Source: a virus
Lineage: Duplodnaviria; Heunggongvirae; Uroviricota; Caudoviricetes
DNA length: 21,043 nt
Reading direction: 5' to 3' (one strand)
Virus record (IMG/VR): IMGVR_UViG_2529292726_000020
In this document: positions 11,323 through 18,157 of the stretch, piece after piece
Layout: each line of letters starts with the position of its first letter
Position numbering within the stretch: the stretch's first letter is position 1
Notes under the pieces: model-generated
What the model was told of the DNA's origin: nothing
What the model saw: only the letters and a program-made list of their open reading frames with translations
Databases searched by the model: none
Program-made: the position numbers and the translations under genes

Positions 11323-11573
11323 TGAAAGAATACCGCTATTCCGGCCCGGCCAGCGGCGTCACGCTGTCGGACGGAACCGAAATCCTGCTCTGGCCGGGGA
11401 AGACGGTTTCCCTGCCGGAGGAGCATGACTACGTGAAGGTACTGGTGGCGCTGAAACATCTGACGCCGGTACCTGAAGAGACTAAACCCGCCGGCACACC
11501 GGCTGTGCAGTCACCAAAGCGCAGAAGCAGCAGTGACAGCGAAGTGAAAACGGAGGACACCCATGGCAGCTAA
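11322..11573 (+). CDS. Hypothetical small phage protein (position of Mu gp38)
   Basis: ATG at 11322 overlapping the upstream TGA (track lists the GTG at 11319). GAGGAA upstream. Confidence 0.45.
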   Translation: MKEYRYSGPASGVTLSDGTEILLWPGKTVSLPEEHDYVKVLVALKHLTPVPEETKPAGTPAVQSPKRRSSSDSEVKTEDTHGS

Positions 11574-12990
11574 CTATCTGCATGGTCCCGAAACCATTGA
11601 GGTGGAAAACGGTGCCCGCCCGGTTAAAACGGTGAAATCTGCCGTTATTGGCCTGATTGGTACCGCCCCGATGGGGGATGTCAATACGCTGGTACAGTGC
11701 CTGTCTGAGAAAGACGCAGCGGCATTTGGCAGCCAGTTCACCGGCTTTACCATTCCGCAGGCGCTGGATGCGATTTATGACCATGGTGCAGGTACCGTTC
11801 TGGTCATTAACGTCCTCGACCCGGCGAAACATAAAACGGCGATCGAGGATGAGGTGGTTACCTTTGACAAATCGACAGGGCAGGCCAGACTGGCGCATCC
11901 GGTTGTCGCTAATGTGGTGGTGAAAAACAGTGAAGGCAGCACCACCCACACGGCGAACACGGACTACCGTGTTGATGCGCAGGCGGGTGTGCTCACGAAC
12001 CTGGGCAAGGCTATTGAGGCCGGTGGCAGCGTGAAGGTGAGCTATGAGTACGCGGACCCGTCGAAGGTGACTGCGGCGGACATCATCGGCGGGGTGAATA
12101 GCGCCGGAAACCGAACTGGCATGAAGCTGCTTAACGACAGCTTCAACCTGTACGGCTATTTCGCCAAAATTCTGATTGCGCCGGTGTTCTGCACCCAGAA
12201 GAGTGTCGCAGTTGAGCTTATCGCCATGGCAGAGAAGCTGGGCGCGGTAACCTACATTGATGCGCCTGTCGGTACCACCTTTGCACAGGCTCTGGCAGGT
12301 CGTGGCCCGGAAGGCACCATCAACTTCAATACCAGCTCCGACCGCGTCCGTCTGTGCTATCCGCATGTGAAGGTATATGACCCGGTGACAAACACAGAGC
12401 GTCTGGAGCCGCTCAGCCAGCGTGCAGCAGGTCTGCGTGCCAGAGTCGATCTGGACAAGGGCTACTGGTGGTCATCCTCCAATCAGGAGATTCTGGGGAT
12501 CACCGGCGTGGAGCGCCAGCTGTCCGCGATGATTGATGACCCGCAGAGTGAGGTGAACCTGCTTAACGAACAGGGGATCACCACGGTATTCAGCAGTTAC
12601 GGCAGCGGCCTTCGTCTGTGGGGTAACCGGACGGCAGCATGGCCAACGGTCACCCATATGCGTAACTTTGAGAACGTTCGCCGCACCGGTGATGTGATCA
12701 ACGAGTCCATTCGTTATTTCAGCCAGCAGTACATCGACATGCCGATTACTCAGGCGCTGATTGATGCACTGACGGAGTCGGTCAACGCCTACGGTCGCAA
12801 AATGACTGGTGATGGTGCGGTACTGGGCTTCCGTTGCTGGTTTGATCCGGCCCGCAATCCGGAGACGGAGCTGGCCGCCGGGCACCTGTTGCTGAGCTAC
12901 AAATATACGCCACCACCGCCGCTGGAGCGACTGACGTTTGAGACTGAGATCACCTCGGAATACCTGTTAACCCTGAAAGGGGGCAACTGA
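11563..12990 (+). CDS. Tail sheath protein
   Basis: 475 aa, SD GGAGGA, followed directly by the tube gene. Size and position are typical of contractile sheaths. Confidence 0.9.
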   Translation: MAANYLHGPETIEVENGARPVKTVKSAVIGLIGTAPMGDVNTLVQCLSEKDAAAFGSQFTGFTIPQALDAIYDHGAGTVLVINVLDPAKHKTAIEDEVVTFDKSTGQARLAHPVVANVVVKNSEGSTTHTANTDYRVDAQAGVLTNLGKAIEAGGSVKVSYEYADPSKVTAADIIGGVNSAGNRTGMKLLNDSFNLYGYFAKILIAPVFCTQKSVAVELIAMAEKLGAVTYIDAPVGTTFAQALAGRGPEGTINFNTSSDRVRLCYPHVKVYDPVTNTERLEPLSQRAAGLRARVDLDKGYWWSSSNQEILGITGVERQLSAMIDDPQSEVNLLNEQGITTVFSSYGSGLRLWGNRTAAWPTVTHMRNFENVRRTGDVINESIRYFSQQYIDMPITQALIDALTESVNAYGRKMTGDGAVLGFRCWFDPARNPETELAAGHLLLSYKYTPPPPLERLTFETEITSEYLLTLKGGN

Positions 12991-13511
12991 TGTCAAAGAT
13001 TGAGATAAACCGCATCACGAATGCCAACATCTATCTGGATGGTACTAACCTGCTGGGACGGGCTGAGGAAGTTAAACTCCCCGATGTCTCCATGATTATG
13101 CAGGAACACAAGGCACTGGGGATGGTGGGTAAGGTGGAACTCCCGGCTGGTTTTGACAAACTGGAAGGCGAAATCAAATGGAACAGCTTTTACCGCGATG
13201 CGATGCTGTCTGCCGCGAACCCGTACAAGTCGCTGGCGCTGCAGTGTCGCTCCAGCGTCCAGCGCTACAGCTCGCAGGGGCTGATCGACGAAATCCCGCT
13301 GGTCACCTTCCTGACAATTATGTTCAAGAAGAACCCGCTGGGGACGTTTAAACAGCACGAGAACGCCGAGTTCTCCAGTAGCTTCACCTGCACGTATATC
13401 AGACAGGTACTGGATGGTGAAGAGCTGCTGCAACTGGACTATCTGGCCAACATCTTCCGGGTCGGCGGTGTTGATCAACTGACTGACTACCGTATCAATA
13501 TCGGGGGCTGA
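12990..13511 (+). CDS. Tail tube protein
   Basis: 173 aa immediately downstream of the sheath with ATG overlapping its stop. Confidence 0.85.
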   Translation: MSKIEINRITNANIYLDGTNLLGRAEEVKLPDVSMIMQEHKALGMVGKVELPAGFDKLEGEIKWNSFYRDAMLSAANPYKSLALQCRSSVQRYSSQGLIDEIPLVTFLTIMFKKNPLGTFKQHENAEFSSSFTCTYIRQVLDGEELLQLDYLANIFRVGGVDQLTDYRINIGG

Positions 13512-13513
13512 CG

Positions 13514-13795
13514 GTGAGTGTTGAACTGACGGATAAAGGAGGACGATGTGCGGCACTGGGCATGTCAAATGGTACGTGGTTTACCCTCCTTGATATTCCG
13601 GGGGTGGAAACCCTTTTTAATACCCGTAAAACCAATGACCCGATTGACTGCACACGTTCAAAGGCCCGCAAACTGGCGGATTTGATTGAAGCATGGGAGC
13701 CTCCCGACCACTGGTTCTCCGGCACCGGCAAATCTGAGGGAAAGACGCTTCTCATCGCTTTCCTGCGTAACTGCAAGGGGTTTCGCACTTGCTGA
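13514..13795 (+). CDS. Hypothetical protein inserted between tube and tail chaperone (possible moron)
   Basis: Track ORF of 93 aa starting at a GTG (alternative ATG at 13562). Cys-containing, no family recognised. Followed by a hairpin plus T-tract. Confidence 0.4.
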   Translation: MSVELTDKGGRCAALGMSNGTWFTLLDIPGVETLFNTRKTNDPIDCTRSKARKLADLIEAWEPPDHWFSGTGKSEGKTLLIAFLRNCKGFRTC

Positions 13796-13801
13796 CATCA
13801 C

Positions 13802-13830
13802 AGGGGCTCCGGCCCCTTCTTCTTAATCTC
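13802..13830 (+). terminator. Candidate intrinsic terminator (stem AGGGGC/GCCCCT, loop TCCG, then TCTTCTT)
   Basis: GC-rich inverted repeat at 13802-13817 followed by a T-rich tract, directly after the 13514-13795 ORF and just before motif copy 3. Confidence 0.4.
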
Positions 13831-13892: not shown

Positions 13893-14228
13893 ATGTCACA
13901 GACCCCATCCGATACTTTTAAATTGTCTTATCCCTTCACCACTGCTGCAGGCACCAGAATTGAGCTGGTTGAACTGAAACGCCTGACGGTAAAAGACCTG
14001 AAGCAGGTGCGCAAAATCAGCAAAAACCCGGCAGACTGGGACGAACCGCTGATTGCCCGCAGTACTGGTCTTCTCCCGGAAGATCTCGACAATATGGATC
14101 TGGCTGATTACCTGCAGTTACAGAAACGATTTCAGCTCATCACGGGGATGGGTGAGAGCAACCAGGGCGCTGACGCAGGCGCAGGGGCTGCTGGCGAGAT
14201 GGTTCCGGTTTCAGCCGGGGGAGATTGA
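13893..14228 (+). CDS. Tail assembly chaperone (P2 gpE / lambda G analogue)
   Basis: 111 aa with SD AGGAG, directly upstream of the tape measure. Gly/Ala-rich low-complexity C-terminus. An overlapping ORF (14053-14310) has no start of its own. Confidence 0.7.
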   Translation: MSQTPSDTFKLSYPFTTAAGTRIELVELKRLTVKDLKQVRKISKNPADWDEPLIARSTGLLPEDLDNMDLADYLQLQKRFQLITGMGESNQGADAGAGAAGEMVPVSAGGD

Positions 14229-14310
14229 TGCCCTCGATACTGACGATCTGGAGATGTGGCTGGAGCAGGCTGAAGAGCAAATAAAAAGCGAGTACGGCGA
14301 CAAATCATAG
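13893..14310 (+). CDS. Predicted frameshift fusion product of the tail chaperone (E+E'-like), requiring a +1 shift
   Basis: Track ORF 14053-14310 is in the +1 frame relative to 13893-14228 and encodes a protein-like acidic helical segment (..ARWFRFQPGEIDALDTDDLEMWLEQAEEQIK..). A G5 run at ~14217-14221 is a possible slip site. Confidence 0.4.
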
Positions 14311-14385
14311 TACAGACAGCCGCCAGTAGCGGCTGTTCTGCGTTATCCCCTCACGTCTTTTCACCTTCCCCGGAGGTTAACCACT

Positions 14386-17274
14386 ATGTCGGGACAGTTT
14401 TCAGTCGGCGTTGTTATCGGCGGGATGATTGGTAGCACATTCCGTTCTGCAATGAGCGGTACCCGCCGTGCGCTTGATTCCCTGAGCGATACCTCACGCC
14501 GCCTGCAGGAACGTCAGAACGCTTTAACCCGTGCAACAGAACGTTATGGTCAACTGGGTTCTTCCCGGATGCAGCATCTCAACAGCGAGCTGCTGCGGGT
14601 AAGCCGCACCATGGAGCAAATTGAGCGCCAGCAGCGCCGTCTGTCAGCGGCATCCGCTACCAGTGATGCGCTGAAAGCTAACCGCATGGCGCTGTATGGT
14701 CAGGGGATTGAAGCGTATGGCATGGCACAGACTGTTTATCATACGGTTTCCCCTGCCGTTCAGCAGTCCATGTCTTTTCAGGACAAAATGATTGATATGT
14801 CGATCACCGCAAAATATGACAATAAAACGCGGGATGCACTTGCCGGACAGATAAAAGGCTGGGCGCTTAAATACAATCAGTATCAGGATGAGCTGCAGGA
14901 GGCGGTGGGTTCACTCATCAGCGACAATATTGATAATGTGTCAGATATCGGTTTTCTGATGCCGGATATTGCCCGCGCGGCAACGGCAACACGCACGTCT
15001 GCTCAGGACTGGGCAAAAGTGGCCGCAGTCTGGCAAAACTCCCTGAAAGGTGCGGCCAGAGATTTTGGTGCCGTTCAGAATATTATGGCTTATGCCGGTG
15101 ACCAGGGGTCATTTGAAATCCCGGATCAGGTCAAGTGGATGCAGTCCCTGGCCCCAATGATGGCGGGTATTGCCAGTGGAAAAGAGGCTGTTGCTGAAAT
15201 CGGGGCCAGTCTCCAGATAGCAAAAATCGGTGCAGGTTCCACCGACGAAGCAGCCAATAATTTTAAAAACTTTCTTACCAAAATTTTTGCCCGCGATACT
15301 CAGAAACAGTTTGCTGATCTGGGTATTGATTTGCAGGGATCTATTGCGAGTTATAAAGCTGCGGGGATCTCTCCGATTGAAGGGATGTTGAGTGTTATAG
15401 AACGTTACCTCAATGCCAAAAGCCCCGAAGCGCTGGCCGGCTTCAAATCAGCCATGAAAATAAAGAATGATACGGCAAGAGATGAGGCACTTCAGGCTCT
15501 GGCGAAAAACTTTGGTCTGGGCGATATGTTCGCGGATATGCAGGTCATGGCATTTATCCGCCCGATGCTGGCCAACATGGACAGATATCGAGAGATCCGT
15601 GCCGGTGCTCTCAGGGCTGCGGATAACGATTTGCTTGCCAGTGCTTATGATCAGCGGCTGAAATCTCCCCTTGAAGCCACTAAAGCACTTATGGTCAGCA
15701 GTCGCGATCTGGCAATTACGCTGGGCGATCAATTAGCTCCATCTTTTATTTCTCTGACTCAGGAACTGCTTCCACTCATTCAGGGGGCAAAACACTGGGT
15801 AGCGACTCACCCGCAATTTGTCAGTGGGGCTTTTAAGCTCATCAGTGCGCTCCTTGCGATTAAGATAGCGACTGTTGGTCTCAAACTGGGGCTGAATCTC
15901 CTTATTTCCCCCTTTGTAAGTGTCTGGAAAAATGCTGTTTTACTTCGGGCCAACTGGCTTCGTCTGTCGCTCGCACTGGGGCAAGGCGGTAAGCTCCGCT
16001 GCTGGCTGGTTCGCGGAATTATGCTCGCCGGTCGTGCTGTTCTCTGGATTGGACGTGCGCTGATGATGAATCCCATCGGTCTCGTTATCACCGCTGTCGC
16101 GGCAGCAGCTTACCTTATCTACCGCAACTGGTGGGCAGTCAGTGGCTGGTTTAAACAGCGCTGGGCAGACATTCAGGAAGCCTTTAACGGCGGCATTGTG
16201 GGAATTGGTAAGTTGCTGATTAACTGGTCGCCGGCAGGCCTGCTCTATAAAGCCTTTGCGGCTGCGCTGAAATATTTCGGCGTTGCTCTGCCGGCAAAGT
16301 TCACCGACTTCGGTGGCCATCTTATCGACGGTCTGATTAACGGTATCAAAAACAAATGGGGGTCGCTCAAATCCAGTGTAACCGGAATGGGTGACAGCAT
16401 CAGTAGCTGGTTTAAACAGTGCTGGGCTGACATTCAGGAAGCCTTTAACGGCGGTATCGCGGGAACTGGTAAGCTGCTGATTAACTGGTCGCCGGCAGGT
16501 CTGCTCTATAAAGCCTTTGCAGCTGCGCTGAAATATCTTGGTGTTGATCTGCCGGCAAAGTTCACCGACTTCGGTGGCCATCTTGTCGACGGTCTGATTA
16601 ACGGTATCAAAAACAAATGGGAGTCGCTCAAATCCAGTGTAACCGGAATGGGTGACAGCATCAGTGGCTGGTTCAGCGAAAAGCTGGGCATTCATTCGCC
16701 GAGTCGCGTGTTTATGGGCTTTGGTGACAATATCGCGCAGGGGGCCGCCATTGGCCTGCAGCGGACCACTCCGCTTGCAGCTCTGGCCGGGCAGCGAATG
16801 GCCAGTGAACTGCTCCCCAAAATGCCCGTGAGCATTCAGGGGCCAGAAATACGGGATAACACTTCAGGTGTTCGCTTCAGTATGCCGTTGCCCGATATCA
16901 ACGGGTTTATGTCGTCTGCTAAAAATGCGATCGGAGCCGTAATCAATAGTTTGTCTTCCATGCCCGCTATCCCGCTCTCCACCCGGGCATCGATTTTACC
17001 AGGGCAACGTCTGGCAAATGAGATGACACCGGATGTTCCCCGTATCCCCTCGCCTGAAATCATGGCTGCCGGATATTCAGGCCGTGGTGCAGCTGCAACC
17101 GGCGGTGGAACGTCTGGTGGTATCCAGGTCAGCTTTAATCCTCAGTTTTTCCTCAATGGCAGGGAAACCGCAGCGCCTGCCGGGCTGACTGGCGCCCTGA
17201 ATATGAGCCTGCATGAGCTGGAAAAAATGCTGGAGCGTCTGCTGGCTCAGAAACAACGTAAGGAGTACAGCTGA
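14386..17274 (+). CDS. Tail tape measure protein
   Basis: 962 aa with SD GGAGG. N-terminal coiled-coil, central hydrophobic segments, Gly-rich C-terminus. Standard position after the chaperone. Confidence 0.9.
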   Translation: MSGQFSVGVVIGGMIGSTFRSAMSGTRRALDSLSDTSRRLQERQNALTRATERYGQLGSSRMQHLNSELLRVSRTMEQIERQQRRLSAASATSDALKANRMALYGQGIEAYGMAQTVYHTVSPAVQQSMSFQDKMIDMSITAKYDNKTRDALAGQIKGWALKYNQYQDELQEAVGSLISDNIDNVSDIGFLMPDIARAATATRTSAQDWAKVAAVWQNSLKGAARDFGAVQNIMAYAGDQGSFEIPDQVKWMQSLAPMMAGIASGKEAVAEIGASLQIAKIGAGSTDEAANNFKNFLTKIFARDTQKQFADLGIDLQGSIASYKAAGISPIEGMLSVIERYLNAKSPEALAGFKSAMKIKNDTARDEALQALAKNFGLGDMFADMQVMAFIRPMLANMDRYREIRAGALRAADNDLLASAYDQRLKSPLEATKALMVSSRDLAITLGDQLAPSFISLTQELLPLIQGAKHWVATHPQFVSGAFKLISALLAIKIATVGLKLGLNLLISPFVSVWKNAVLLRANWLRLSLALGQGGKLRCWLVRGIMLAGRAVLWIGRALMMNPIGLVITAVAAAAYLIYRNWWAVSGWFKQRWADIQEAFNGGIVGIGKLLINWSPAGLLYKAFAAALKYFGVALPAKFTDFGGHLIDGLINGIKNKWGSLKSSVTGMGDSISSWFKQCWADIQEAFNGGIAGTGKLLINWSPAGLLYKAFAAALKYLGVDLPAKFTDFGGHLVDGLINGIKNKWESLKSSVTGMGDSISGWFSEKLGIHSPSRVFMGFGDNIAQGAAIGLQRTTPLAALAGQRMASELLPKMPVSIQGPEIRDNTSGVRFSMPLPDINGFMSSAKNAIGAVINSLSSMPAIPLSTRASILPGQRLANEMTPDVPRIPSPEIMAAGYSGRGAAATGGGTSGGIQVSFNPQFFLNGRETAAPAGLTGALNMSLHELEKMLERLLAQKQRKEYS
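16147..16668 (+). repeat. In-frame tandem duplication, 2 x 261 bp (2 x 87 aa), inside the tape measure gene
   Basis: Copy 1 16147-16407 (WFKQRWADIQEAFNGG..GMGDSISS) and copy 2 16408-16668 (WFKQCWADIQEAFNGG..GMGDSISG) differ at 8 of 87 residues. The duplicate antisense ORFs 16245-16433 and 16506-16691 are also offset by 261 bp. Confidence 0.9.
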
Positions 17275-17819
17275 TGTTTGCCGTACTGGGTGATATTGAG
17301 TTTGAACTGATTACCTACTGGGACGGCTTCGAGGCCACGTTTGGCGTCGATTATGCGGAGCATGCCCGCATCGAGGGTAAACCCGGCCTGCAGTTCGTCG
17401 GCGACAGGCTGGACGAAATCCAGATAACTCTGGTTTTCCATCAGCATTATTGTGTACCCGATGTGGAGCTGGCGAGAGTGCGAACAGCCATGAAAGCCCA
17501 TCAGGCACTGGCGCTGGTCTTCGGCAACGGTGACTATCGCGGCTGGTTCGTGATTACCGATGTGACCGCAACCAGCGAGCAGACAGACAGCACCGGTAAC
17601 GTGCTGGCTGTCAGTGCCACCGTGTCTCTCCGGGAATACACCGGTGATCCGAAAAATCCTCTGCAACCGCCGGCAATACGCACGAAGTTCCCGGTGCCGG
17701 GGCGGTCTCCGGTGCCATTCCATCACCTTCAGGGGTGGCGCAGTTCATCCGCAACGGCGTCAACTATGCGAAACAGGCGCAGTCTGTACTCCAGACCACT
17801 ATCAGCGCCGTTCGGGTGA
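17274..17819 (+). CDS. Tail protein, P2 gpU-like / N-domain of Mu-type DNA-circulation protein; C-terminal ~55 aa look out of frame
   Basis: N-terminal ~125 aa (MFAVLGDIEFEL..GLQFVGDRLDEIQITLVF..GWFVITDVTAT..VSLREY) fit the gpU-like pattern. The rest is Pro/Arg/Ser-rich and unlike protein sequence. Confidence 0.55.
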   Translation: MFAVLGDIEFELITYWDGFEATFGVDYAEHARIEGKPGLQFVGDRLDEIQITLVFHQHYCVPDVELARVRTAMKAHQALALVFGNGDYRGWFVITDVTATSEQTDSTGNVLAVSATVSLREYTGDPKNPLQPPAIRTKFPVPGRSPVPFHHLQGWRSSSATASTMRNRRSLYSRPLSAPFG

Positions 17820-18157
17820 CACAGAAAATGAAGGATAACCCCGTTGTCGCACTGACCCGTGTGCCGGGGCTGATGAGCGGACTGGGTAATATCTCCGGGG
17901 CTCTGGGGAAAAGTGTTCCGGCGTTTAACGCACTCTCTGAATCCATGCCCGATGCCATCAGTCTGGCCAGAACAGCCAGCGAAGCAGCCACGTATGTACA
18001 GCAGGCACAGTCTGCGCTGAGTGGTGTGGACAAAAGAAATATTGCAGGTGCTCTGGATACCGTTTCCGGGCAGCTTAACGCCGCCGGCACAGCATTCAAC
18101 CGCATGTCTCCGGGATTAAGTGCAATGGCCGCCAGAATACTGACGAGGAGTGTGTGA
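17735..18157 (+). CDS. Tail protein fragment; probable downstream part of a frameshift-split gene
   Basis: 140-aa ORF in the -1 frame relative to 17274-17819. Its GTG has no spaced SD. The frame is open back to 17648. Confidence 0.45.
   Translation: MAQFIRNGVNYAKQAQSVLQTTISAVRVTQKMKDNPVVALTRVPGLMSGLGNISGALGKSVPAFNALSESMPDAISLARTASEAATYVQQAQSALSGVDKRNIAGALDTVSGQLNAAGTAFNRMSPGLSAMAARILTRSV

Follow-up and report, generated by a model that had tools for sequence, protein, structure and literature searches.

Frameshifting in tail-chaperone genes is conserved in tailed phages and proceeds by -1, -2 or +1, depending on the phage (PMC5009743); among SEA-PHAGES annotations, 350 forward cases stand against 2368 backward ones (PMC10885494). 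The window analysed here, a whole stretch of 21,043 nucleotides of viral DNA (IMG/VR record IMGVR_UViG_2529292726_000020), holds a tail-chaperone gene that is overlapped by a second open reading frame in the +1 frame, and the question that it raises is how, and at which bases, ribosomes would pass from the first frame into the second. The original prediction called such a shift non-canonical. The +1-frame placement itself stands, but -1, -2 and +1 shifts have all been documented for tail chaperones (PMC5009743), and an extension in the +1 frame is therefore unusual rather than new. Comparison with related loci suggests that the window probably encodes an E/E+E' chaperone pair, in which a minority of ribosomes would slip by +1 at UUU_C to yield a 138-aa fusion.

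A P2-like tail module in a BcepMu-like prophage

The window represents a BcepMu-like (Bcepmuvirus) prophage of a type common in E. coli. It is 99.9% identical to prophages of at least 582 complete E. coli genomes and 99.7% identical to phage PhiKM of the genus Bcepmuvirus, while BcepMu and phiE255 are remoter relatives. Its contractile-tail module follows the P2-like order of sheath, tube, E, T, U, X and D, and the chaperone gene sits between the tube and tape measure genes, as expected for a tail-chaperone frameshift pair:

11563-12990: sheath gene, PF04984 (Pfam)
12990-13511, + strand: tail tube gene, PF04985 (E=2.1e-53)
13893-14228, + strand: zero-frame tail assembly chaperone, the gpE-like short form of 111 aa, PF10109 (Phage_TAC_7)
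14386-17274, + strand: tape measure gene, PF10145 (E=1.9e-20)
downstream of the tape measure gene: gpU, gpX and gpD, from a Pfam gene-order scan

The zero-frame protein ends ...GEMVPVSAGGD and carries the Phage_TAC_7 domain at residues 8-81 (E=5.5e-21; 74.8 bits vs a cutoff of 25); it is named 'phage tail assembly protein' by PGAP and 'tail protein E' in the PhiKM record. The second ORF is open from 14053 to a TAG at 14308-14310 and reads ...ARWFRFQPGEIDALDTDDLEMWLEQAEEQIKSEYGDKS, its C-terminal part being ...QGLLARWFRFQPGEIDALDTDDLEMWLEQAEEQIKSEYGDKS. As the two ORFs are offset by 160 nt (14053 - 13893), or 3 x 53 + 1, the second is in the +1 frame. The sole 'start' on it is a mechanical TTG at 14053, the GTG at 14152 chosen by PGAP in some genomes is not conserved, and no other start is conserved among relatives; the recomputed coordinates thus bear out the predicted frame and the predicted want of a usable start. 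The -1 frame contains several stops at the locus and does not read like protein. Two overlapping ORFs, the second conserved as a protein with no conserved start of its own, are what an E/E+E' (G/GT-type) pair upstream of a tape measure gene had been expected to look like, and both the domains and the gene order agree with that assignment.

Annotation of the pair is incomplete. The fused E+E' product is annotated in none of the database records compared (E. coli genomes, PhiKM, BcepMu and phiE255), and in other genomes NCBI annotates the +1 ORF by itself as 'GpE family phage tail protein', from a variety of start codons. The PGAP locus tags of NZ_CP025851.1 skip from CXX11_RS04315 (chaperone) to RS04325 (tape measure), a gap that suggests a feature dropped on re-annotation, possibly the GpE-family ORF.

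Several other features of the tail module were observed. A terminator-like hairpin at 13802-13817 (AGGGGCTCCGGCCCCT then TCTTCTT) lies in the middle of the tail operon and separates a 93-aa hypothetical ORF (13514-13795, with a weak DUF7739 match) from the chaperone gene. Between the stop of E' and the start of the tape measure gene are 75 nt, which include a perfect 8-bp stem at 14313-14333 (ACAGCCGC/GCGGCTGT) that has no T-run. Within the tape measure gene, 261 bp are duplicated in tandem at 16139-16673 (2.0 copies, 93% identical); the gene is 2889 nt long vs 3213 nt in the E. coli 510016 homologue, a length polymorphism that would be expected to alter tail length. The gpU-like tail gene (17274-18157) is broken into ORFs of 181 and 140 aa by a 1-nt deletion (CCCGGG to CCCGG) near 17693, and its counterpart in E. 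coli 510016 is intact (294 aa, WP_000458386.1); this copy of the prophage may carry an inactivating mutation, or the split may come from an error in sequencing.

Conservation and identity of the +1-frame extension

The survey covered 116 distinct loci, drawn from IMG/VR relatives, phage records and a scan of genomes, one per species, with the motif [GAK]LLA[RK]WF[RH]F. The scan was built on the E' alignment, the seven-member chaperone alignment having no sufficiently conserved stretch, and it returned 63 loci in Enterobacterales, in Betaproteobacteria and in a small number of other bacterial groups. Relative to the chaperone, E' occupies the +1 frame at every one of the 116 loci but L101 (Apirhabdus apintestini CP138906). 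There, the chaperone N-terminus shares the frame of E' for about 100 codons upstream of TTT_C; an indel about seven codons upstream of the site is likely, giving a constitutive fusion or being an assembly error.

From QGLLARWF (Q at 14182) onward, the +1 peptide is nearly invariant in 54 distinct close relatives, so that the +1 ORF is conserved at the protein level, the point on whose failure the original prediction had been ready to fall. Its invariant residues use up to four synonymous codons, and many changes are synonymous in the +1 frame only, while the zero frame over the same bases varies freely in amino acids and, in 30 of the 54, closes early at the TAG equivalent to 14205. This substitution pattern indicates that purifying selection acts on the +1 frame, and, judged from the same alignments, the two-frame arrangement is far from chance.

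The conserved part of the extension resembles a known domain:

14191-14289, + strand: GpE' (PF06528-like) domain in the +1 frame, residues 100-132 of the fused protein, by PF06528 match

The window's extension scores 16-18.4 bits against PF06528 (Phage_P2_GpE), under the cutoff of 23 (E=0.0015-0.007), and the alignment spans model positions 4-36 of 37. Across the family, 16 of 25 representatives match at E<=0.01, the best at 9.6e-8. The E' of Pasteurella phage AFS-2018a bridges both groups, scoring 52 bits against PF06528 and sharing 44% identity with the window. The homologous stretches are ADVAVIFHWPPSELYPMSLTELITWREKALRR in P2, VADVAWWFGWNVSEIEQMTLDELSTWLEQANRQIK in the Pasteurella phage and LLARWFRFQPGEIDALDTDDLEMWLEQAEEQIK in the window, and the homology starts at '(D/E)xLW....LLARWF'. 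By these alignments, the extension is probably a homologue of the E' portion of P2 gpE+E'. An NCBIfam scan of the extension gave no meaningful match, a PDB sequence search with the fusion gave no match, and neither a solved structure nor a proteomic record was found.

With E' lying in the +1 frame and no start codon conserved, ribosomes must shift into that frame to reach it, and the proposal that a +1 programmed frameshift makes the long chaperone form is well supported by the comparison of loci. A -1 route to a homologous E' had been named beforehand as a result that would count against this. Such routes do exist, but only in distant relatives, namely P2 (T_TTT_TTG) and Pasteurella phage AFS-2018a (A_AAG_GGA). 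Since E' would be reached by +1 in this clade and is reached by -1 in those phages, the direction of the shift would have changed within one protein family.

A candidate slip site and its rivals

The zone that was searched for the shift includes four features:

14127-14135, + strand: proposed +1 shift site CGA_UUU_CAG, placed by comparison, with UUU as Phe80 at 14130-14132
14134-14310, + strand: post-shift +1 segment, 58 codons in translation (SSSRGWVRATRALTQAQGLLARWFRFQPGEIDALDTDDLEMWLEQAEEQIKSEYGDKS) plus TAG, open in every relative
14184-14187, + strand: GGG_G, secondary candidate +1 site, its GGG invariant in 54 close relatives
14217-14221, + strand: G5 run (GCC GGG GGA GAT TGA) over codons Pro108-Gly109-Glu110, rejected as slip site

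The slip most likely occurs at the conserved UUU_C (14130-14133), about 90 bases upstream of the G5 run to which the original prediction had pointed. UUU followed by a pyrimidine is prone to +1 shifting, because tRNA-Phe re-pairs to the better-matched UUC, and such a site does not depend on a stop codon (PMC5009743, PMC3498833). All 116 distinct loci have a zero-frame TTT with C as the next base. The codon is the conserved Phe80 at the C-terminal edge of the PF10109 domain, and its contexts include CGA TTT CAG, GCC TTT CGC, TCC TTT CGC and TTT TTT CGC. In GC-rich lineages, the ratio of TTC to TTT among Phe codons in neighbouring ORFs is 362:112, and the site codon is always TTT.

The bounds set by individual lineages are narrow. 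In five of them the +1 frame opens just 8 nt upstream of TTT; in L134, the zero frame stops 6 nt after the start of TTT (GGG TTT TTT CGC TGA), and in eleven other lineages it stops 18-30 nt after TTT. The permissible region common to the lineages runs from -8 to +6 nt around TTT, and because of these bounds the shift would fall within about 14 nt centred on TTT_C, provided that one site is shared across the relatives, which the localisation assumes. The window's own lineage, taken by itself, allows a wide zone (14053-14225).

Stop codons give a concordant picture. In the stretch from TTT_C to E', all 115 loci counted are free of +1 stops, over 2135 codons; the -1 frame has 127 stops there, affecting 95 of the 115 loci, and the +1 frame upstream of TTT has 544 in 9239 codons. 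The loci are related by descent, so these counts are not independent events and overstate independence. When the linkers were grouped into 26 clusters at 70% identity, a +1 stop occurred in none and a -1 stop in 12. The earlier judgement that the -1 frame is junk is thereby upheld. The original prediction had also left the shift as either +1 or -2. Entry into the +1 frame holds, but the -2 option drops out at UUU_C, because re-pairing there would be to GAU and only +1 re-pairs.

Elements that commonly accompany frameshift sites are sparse here. The A-site codons at the 116 loci are common (CAG 87, CGC 12, CAA 11, CTG 3, CAT 2, CGT 1), the CAG of the window is not a hungry codon, and no slowly decoded codon or other conserved stimulator was found. 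An SD-like element upstream of UUU is absent from the window (CAGAAA), and AGGAG at a 3-nt spacing occurs in 4-5 of the 26 clusters. Downstream, no common RNA hairpin was detected (MFE z-scores of -2.8 to +0.8); with no conserved structure, efficiency could be low. The codon before UUU is the rare CGA in 93 of the 116 distinct loci and CGG once (in the window, Arg at 14127-14129). Retention of CGA is notable because its third base should be free if the upstream +1 frame is untranslated, and the rare codon may exert an E-site effect on frameshifting.

The following model, covering the slip itself, the direction that tRNA re-pairing gives it, how often it happens and what each form does, is inferred. 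The majority of ribosomes would translate 13893-14228 into the 111-aa short chaperone. In a minority, peptidyl-tRNA-Phe (anticodon GAA) on the P-site UUU at 14130-14132 would move by +1 onto UUC at 14131-14133, and reading would resume in the +1 frame with AGC at 14134 and end at TAG (14308-14310). The predicted 138-aa fusion would consist of chaperone residues 1-80 (the TAC domain), an 18-residue linker SSSRGWVRATRALTQAQG and a GpE'-type helical domain, with a predicted junction ...LQKRF/SSSRGW... and ...DYLQLQKRFSSSRGWVR... as the diagnostic peptide for a slip at UUU_C. If lambda G/GT and P2 E/E+E' are a guide, both forms would coat the tape measure protein with their shared N-domain and the extension would recruit tube protein; how often ribosomes slip would determine the proportion of short to long form, and neither would be present in the virion. 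In pairs of this kind, the fusion is expected to be made at a fixed low ratio and to be needed for tail assembly.

An unlikely alternative places the +1 slip at GGG_G (14184-14187), where tRNA-Gly would move from GGG to GGG, the next codon would be CTG, and the junction would be ...ADAGAG/LLARWF... (diagnostic peptide ...GADAGAGLLARW...). Its zero-frame GGG is invariant in the 54 distinct close relatives, but the position of the fourth G can hold G, C, T or A, and GGG gives way to GGC or AGC in Pectobacterium and to AAT GGC in Salmonella. Perfect +1-frame conservation begins at 14182, near this site, yet E' homology ('xLW') reaches upstream of 14184, and a slip so far downstream leaves the complete avoidance of +1 stops from TTT_C onward unexplained. 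The verified Mu site is likewise a G-run (CGG_GGG_CGA), and Ralstonia phage YO107_2 carries GGC GGG GGA near the equivalent place; in betaproteobacterial relatives, however, the zero frame closes 22-43 nt ahead of LLARWF, before GGG_G is reached. Since their zero frame stops where E' homology begins, the shift in these relatives must lie further upstream. Not being conserved outside the E. coli-like lineage, GGG_G is only a minor rival to UUU_C, and a lineage-specific or additional slip there is possible.

It is about equally improbable that ribosomes initiate or re-initiate at E' itself and make it as a small protein in its own right, as the stand-alone 'GpE family phage tail protein' of PGAP and the gp42 annotation of BcepMu imply. 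PGAP calls ORFs of 40-52 aa from the GTG equivalent to 14152, from ATG or from other starts, but 35 of 54 relatives have GCN in place of that GTG, whose SD spacing is 3 nt. An ATG stands five codons before GLLARWF in many relatives, Salmonella has ATG GCG CTG CTG and BcepMu gp42 begins with ATG; no start position is conserved, however, the window having ACG and others ATT, ATA or ACA. Moreover, the +1 ORF always extends back to TTT_C, often by just 2-3 codons beyond it, and the homologous E' of P2 is made only as a fusion.

A Mu-like slip of +1 or -2 on the G5 run itself (GCC_GGG_GGA, 14217-14221), favoured by the original prediction, is very improbable. The run does resemble the verified Mu -2 site, and re-pairing would be feasible for both +1 (GGG to GGG) and -2 (GGA to GGG), with a predicted junction ...VSAG(G)/EIDAL.... 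A Mu-type site has its G-run upstream of both the extension domain and the zero-frame stop, with -2 re-pairing; here, the run is inside the conserved GpE' domain, where it encodes P-G-E of 'QPGEID' ('PPSELY' in P2, 'NVSEIE' in Pasteurella). It is lost in many relatives, decaying to CCT/CCA GGG, AGT, TCC or ACG, and the zero frame has already closed upstream of it in every betaproteobacterial relative and, at the TAG equivalent to 14205, in 30 of the 54 close ones. Database in-frame 'fusions' at the run come from contigs with other homopolymer deletions. Least credible of all is the reading that no recoding takes place and the +1 ORF is a relic or a sequencing artefact, for although the window's tail module has a 1-nt deletion elsewhere (the gpU-like gene) and error-derived fused versions are present in databases, the same two-frame layout recurs at 116 distinct loci in two proteobacterial classes, with purifying selection on the +1 frame.

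The 138-aa 'fused' chaperones in databases were considered as natural in-frame variants and rejected, their joins falling at different homopolymers. Public assemblies (Logan contigs L156-L163; proteins P0020-P0028) contain many such fusions from single-base under-calls of G, C or T homopolymers. The commonest is G5 to G4 at 14217, a sequencing-error hotspot, which is seen in the fused proteins P0022-P0024 and in L079. Eight contigs with this allele were examined: all have the 1-nt deletion there, and seven have other homopolymer deletions (G5 at 13600, T5 at 13614, C4 at 14368 or G4 at 15105), so that the fused versions are taken as sequencing artefacts. They could mislead homology-based frameshift calls.

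Relation to known frameshift systems

The nearest counterpart is the gpE/gpE+E' pair of P2. Here too, PF10109 is followed by an extension, which carries PF06528 in P2 and a PF06528-like domain in the window, and the pair is flanked by the genes for tube (FII) and tape measure (T). In both, E' has no start of its own. The slip codon of P2, like the one proposed for the window, is a Phe codon at the C-terminal TAC edge, the run GGT TTT TTG lying within three model positions of UUU_C. P2 differs in shifting by -1 on a T-rich heptamer (T_TTT_TTG), whereas the E' of the window is in the +1 frame, its only conserved motif is UUU_C, no X_XXY_YYZ heptamer is found and the -1 frame is closed. The E' sequence of the window is also divergent from that of P2, falling below the Pfam cutoff by itself.

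In phage Mu, the tail chaperone gp41/Mu_56 undergoes a verified -2 frameshift at CGG_GGG_CGA (PMC5009743; PMC3498833; note in the Mu record), with an efficiency of about 2.2% (PMC3498833). Mu resembles the window in being a myovirus whose tail-chaperone extension is in the +1/-2 frame. In Mu, however, the G5 run is the site and the shift is -2, while the G5 run of the window is not the site; by inspection, the Mu extension has no evident similarity to the GpE' motif.

Shift-prone UUU_Y sequences with a +1 outcome are known from E. coli argI, Yersinia YopN-TyeA and influenza A PA-X (PMC5009743, PMC3498833), the PA-X site being UCC_UUU_CGU (PMC3498833). BcepMu and its relative L144 carry the closely similar UCC_UUU_CGC. 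These genes are unrelated to the chaperone, in which UUU usually follows the rare CGA and has the common CAG after it in the A site.

Another bacterial +1 site is that of prfB (RF2), AGGGGG-UAU-CUU_UGA, which works by a P-site slip. A few relatives of the window recall it in having AGGAG exactly 3 nt upstream of UUU, and some betaproteobacterial relatives in having a zero-frame stop 6-30 nt after UUU. The window itself is unlike prfB, with CAG rather than a stop in the A site and no SD-like element.

Within the family, BcepMu (AY539836) encodes homologues of both pieces: gp41 corresponds to the chaperone of the window and gp42 to its +1 extension, and gp42 is in the +1 frame relative to gp41. 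The BcepMu record takes gp42/gp43 as a G/GT pair joined by slippage and leaves the +1 link between gp41 and gp42 unannotated; the gp42/gp43 frameshift annotation is probably wrong. The gp43 ORF (L004, 2478-2864) overlaps a region that is annotated as a minus-strand small protein gene in phiE255 (L005, 2286-2528), vB_E427 (L155, 2192-2434) and Pseudomonas phage Bise (L087, 1632-1922). The minus-strand product is annotated as a membrane protein in phiE255 and vB_E427, and the reverse strand of gp43, read by eye, likewise looks like a hydrophobic membrane protein. The E. coli window lacks this gene.

For the BcepMu/P2-E family, neither the +1 link nor its UUU_C site appears to have been described so far, although they open no new category, because +1, -1 and -2 chaperone shifts are already known. 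A broader reading, offered tentatively, is that a bare UUU_C, usually after CGA, is the conserved programmed +1 signal of the whole P2-E-type chaperone clade. The clade would then be that of the BcepMu-like phages of Beta- and Gammaproteobacteria, and the signal could conceivably act with no stop codon, rare A-site codon, conserved SD-like element or downstream structure. If this is true, the direction of frameshifting flipped in evolution at a homologous Phe codon, at which P2 shifts by -1 on a T-run, with the two-product logic preserved.

Hundreds of E. coli genomes and the Bcepmuvirus records, including that of BcepMu, lack the fused E+E' product, and some bear instead an arbitrary stand-alone 'GpE family' ORF or the doubtful gp42/gp43 slippage call; the TTT_C rule would allow annotators to join both pieces correctly. 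If confirmed, the site would provide a natural and widely conserved bacterial case of minimal UUU_C +1 programmed frameshifting. It would likewise provide a homologous pair, -1 in P2 and +1 in this clade, for studying how the direction and efficiency of frameshifting evolve under a maintained product ratio.
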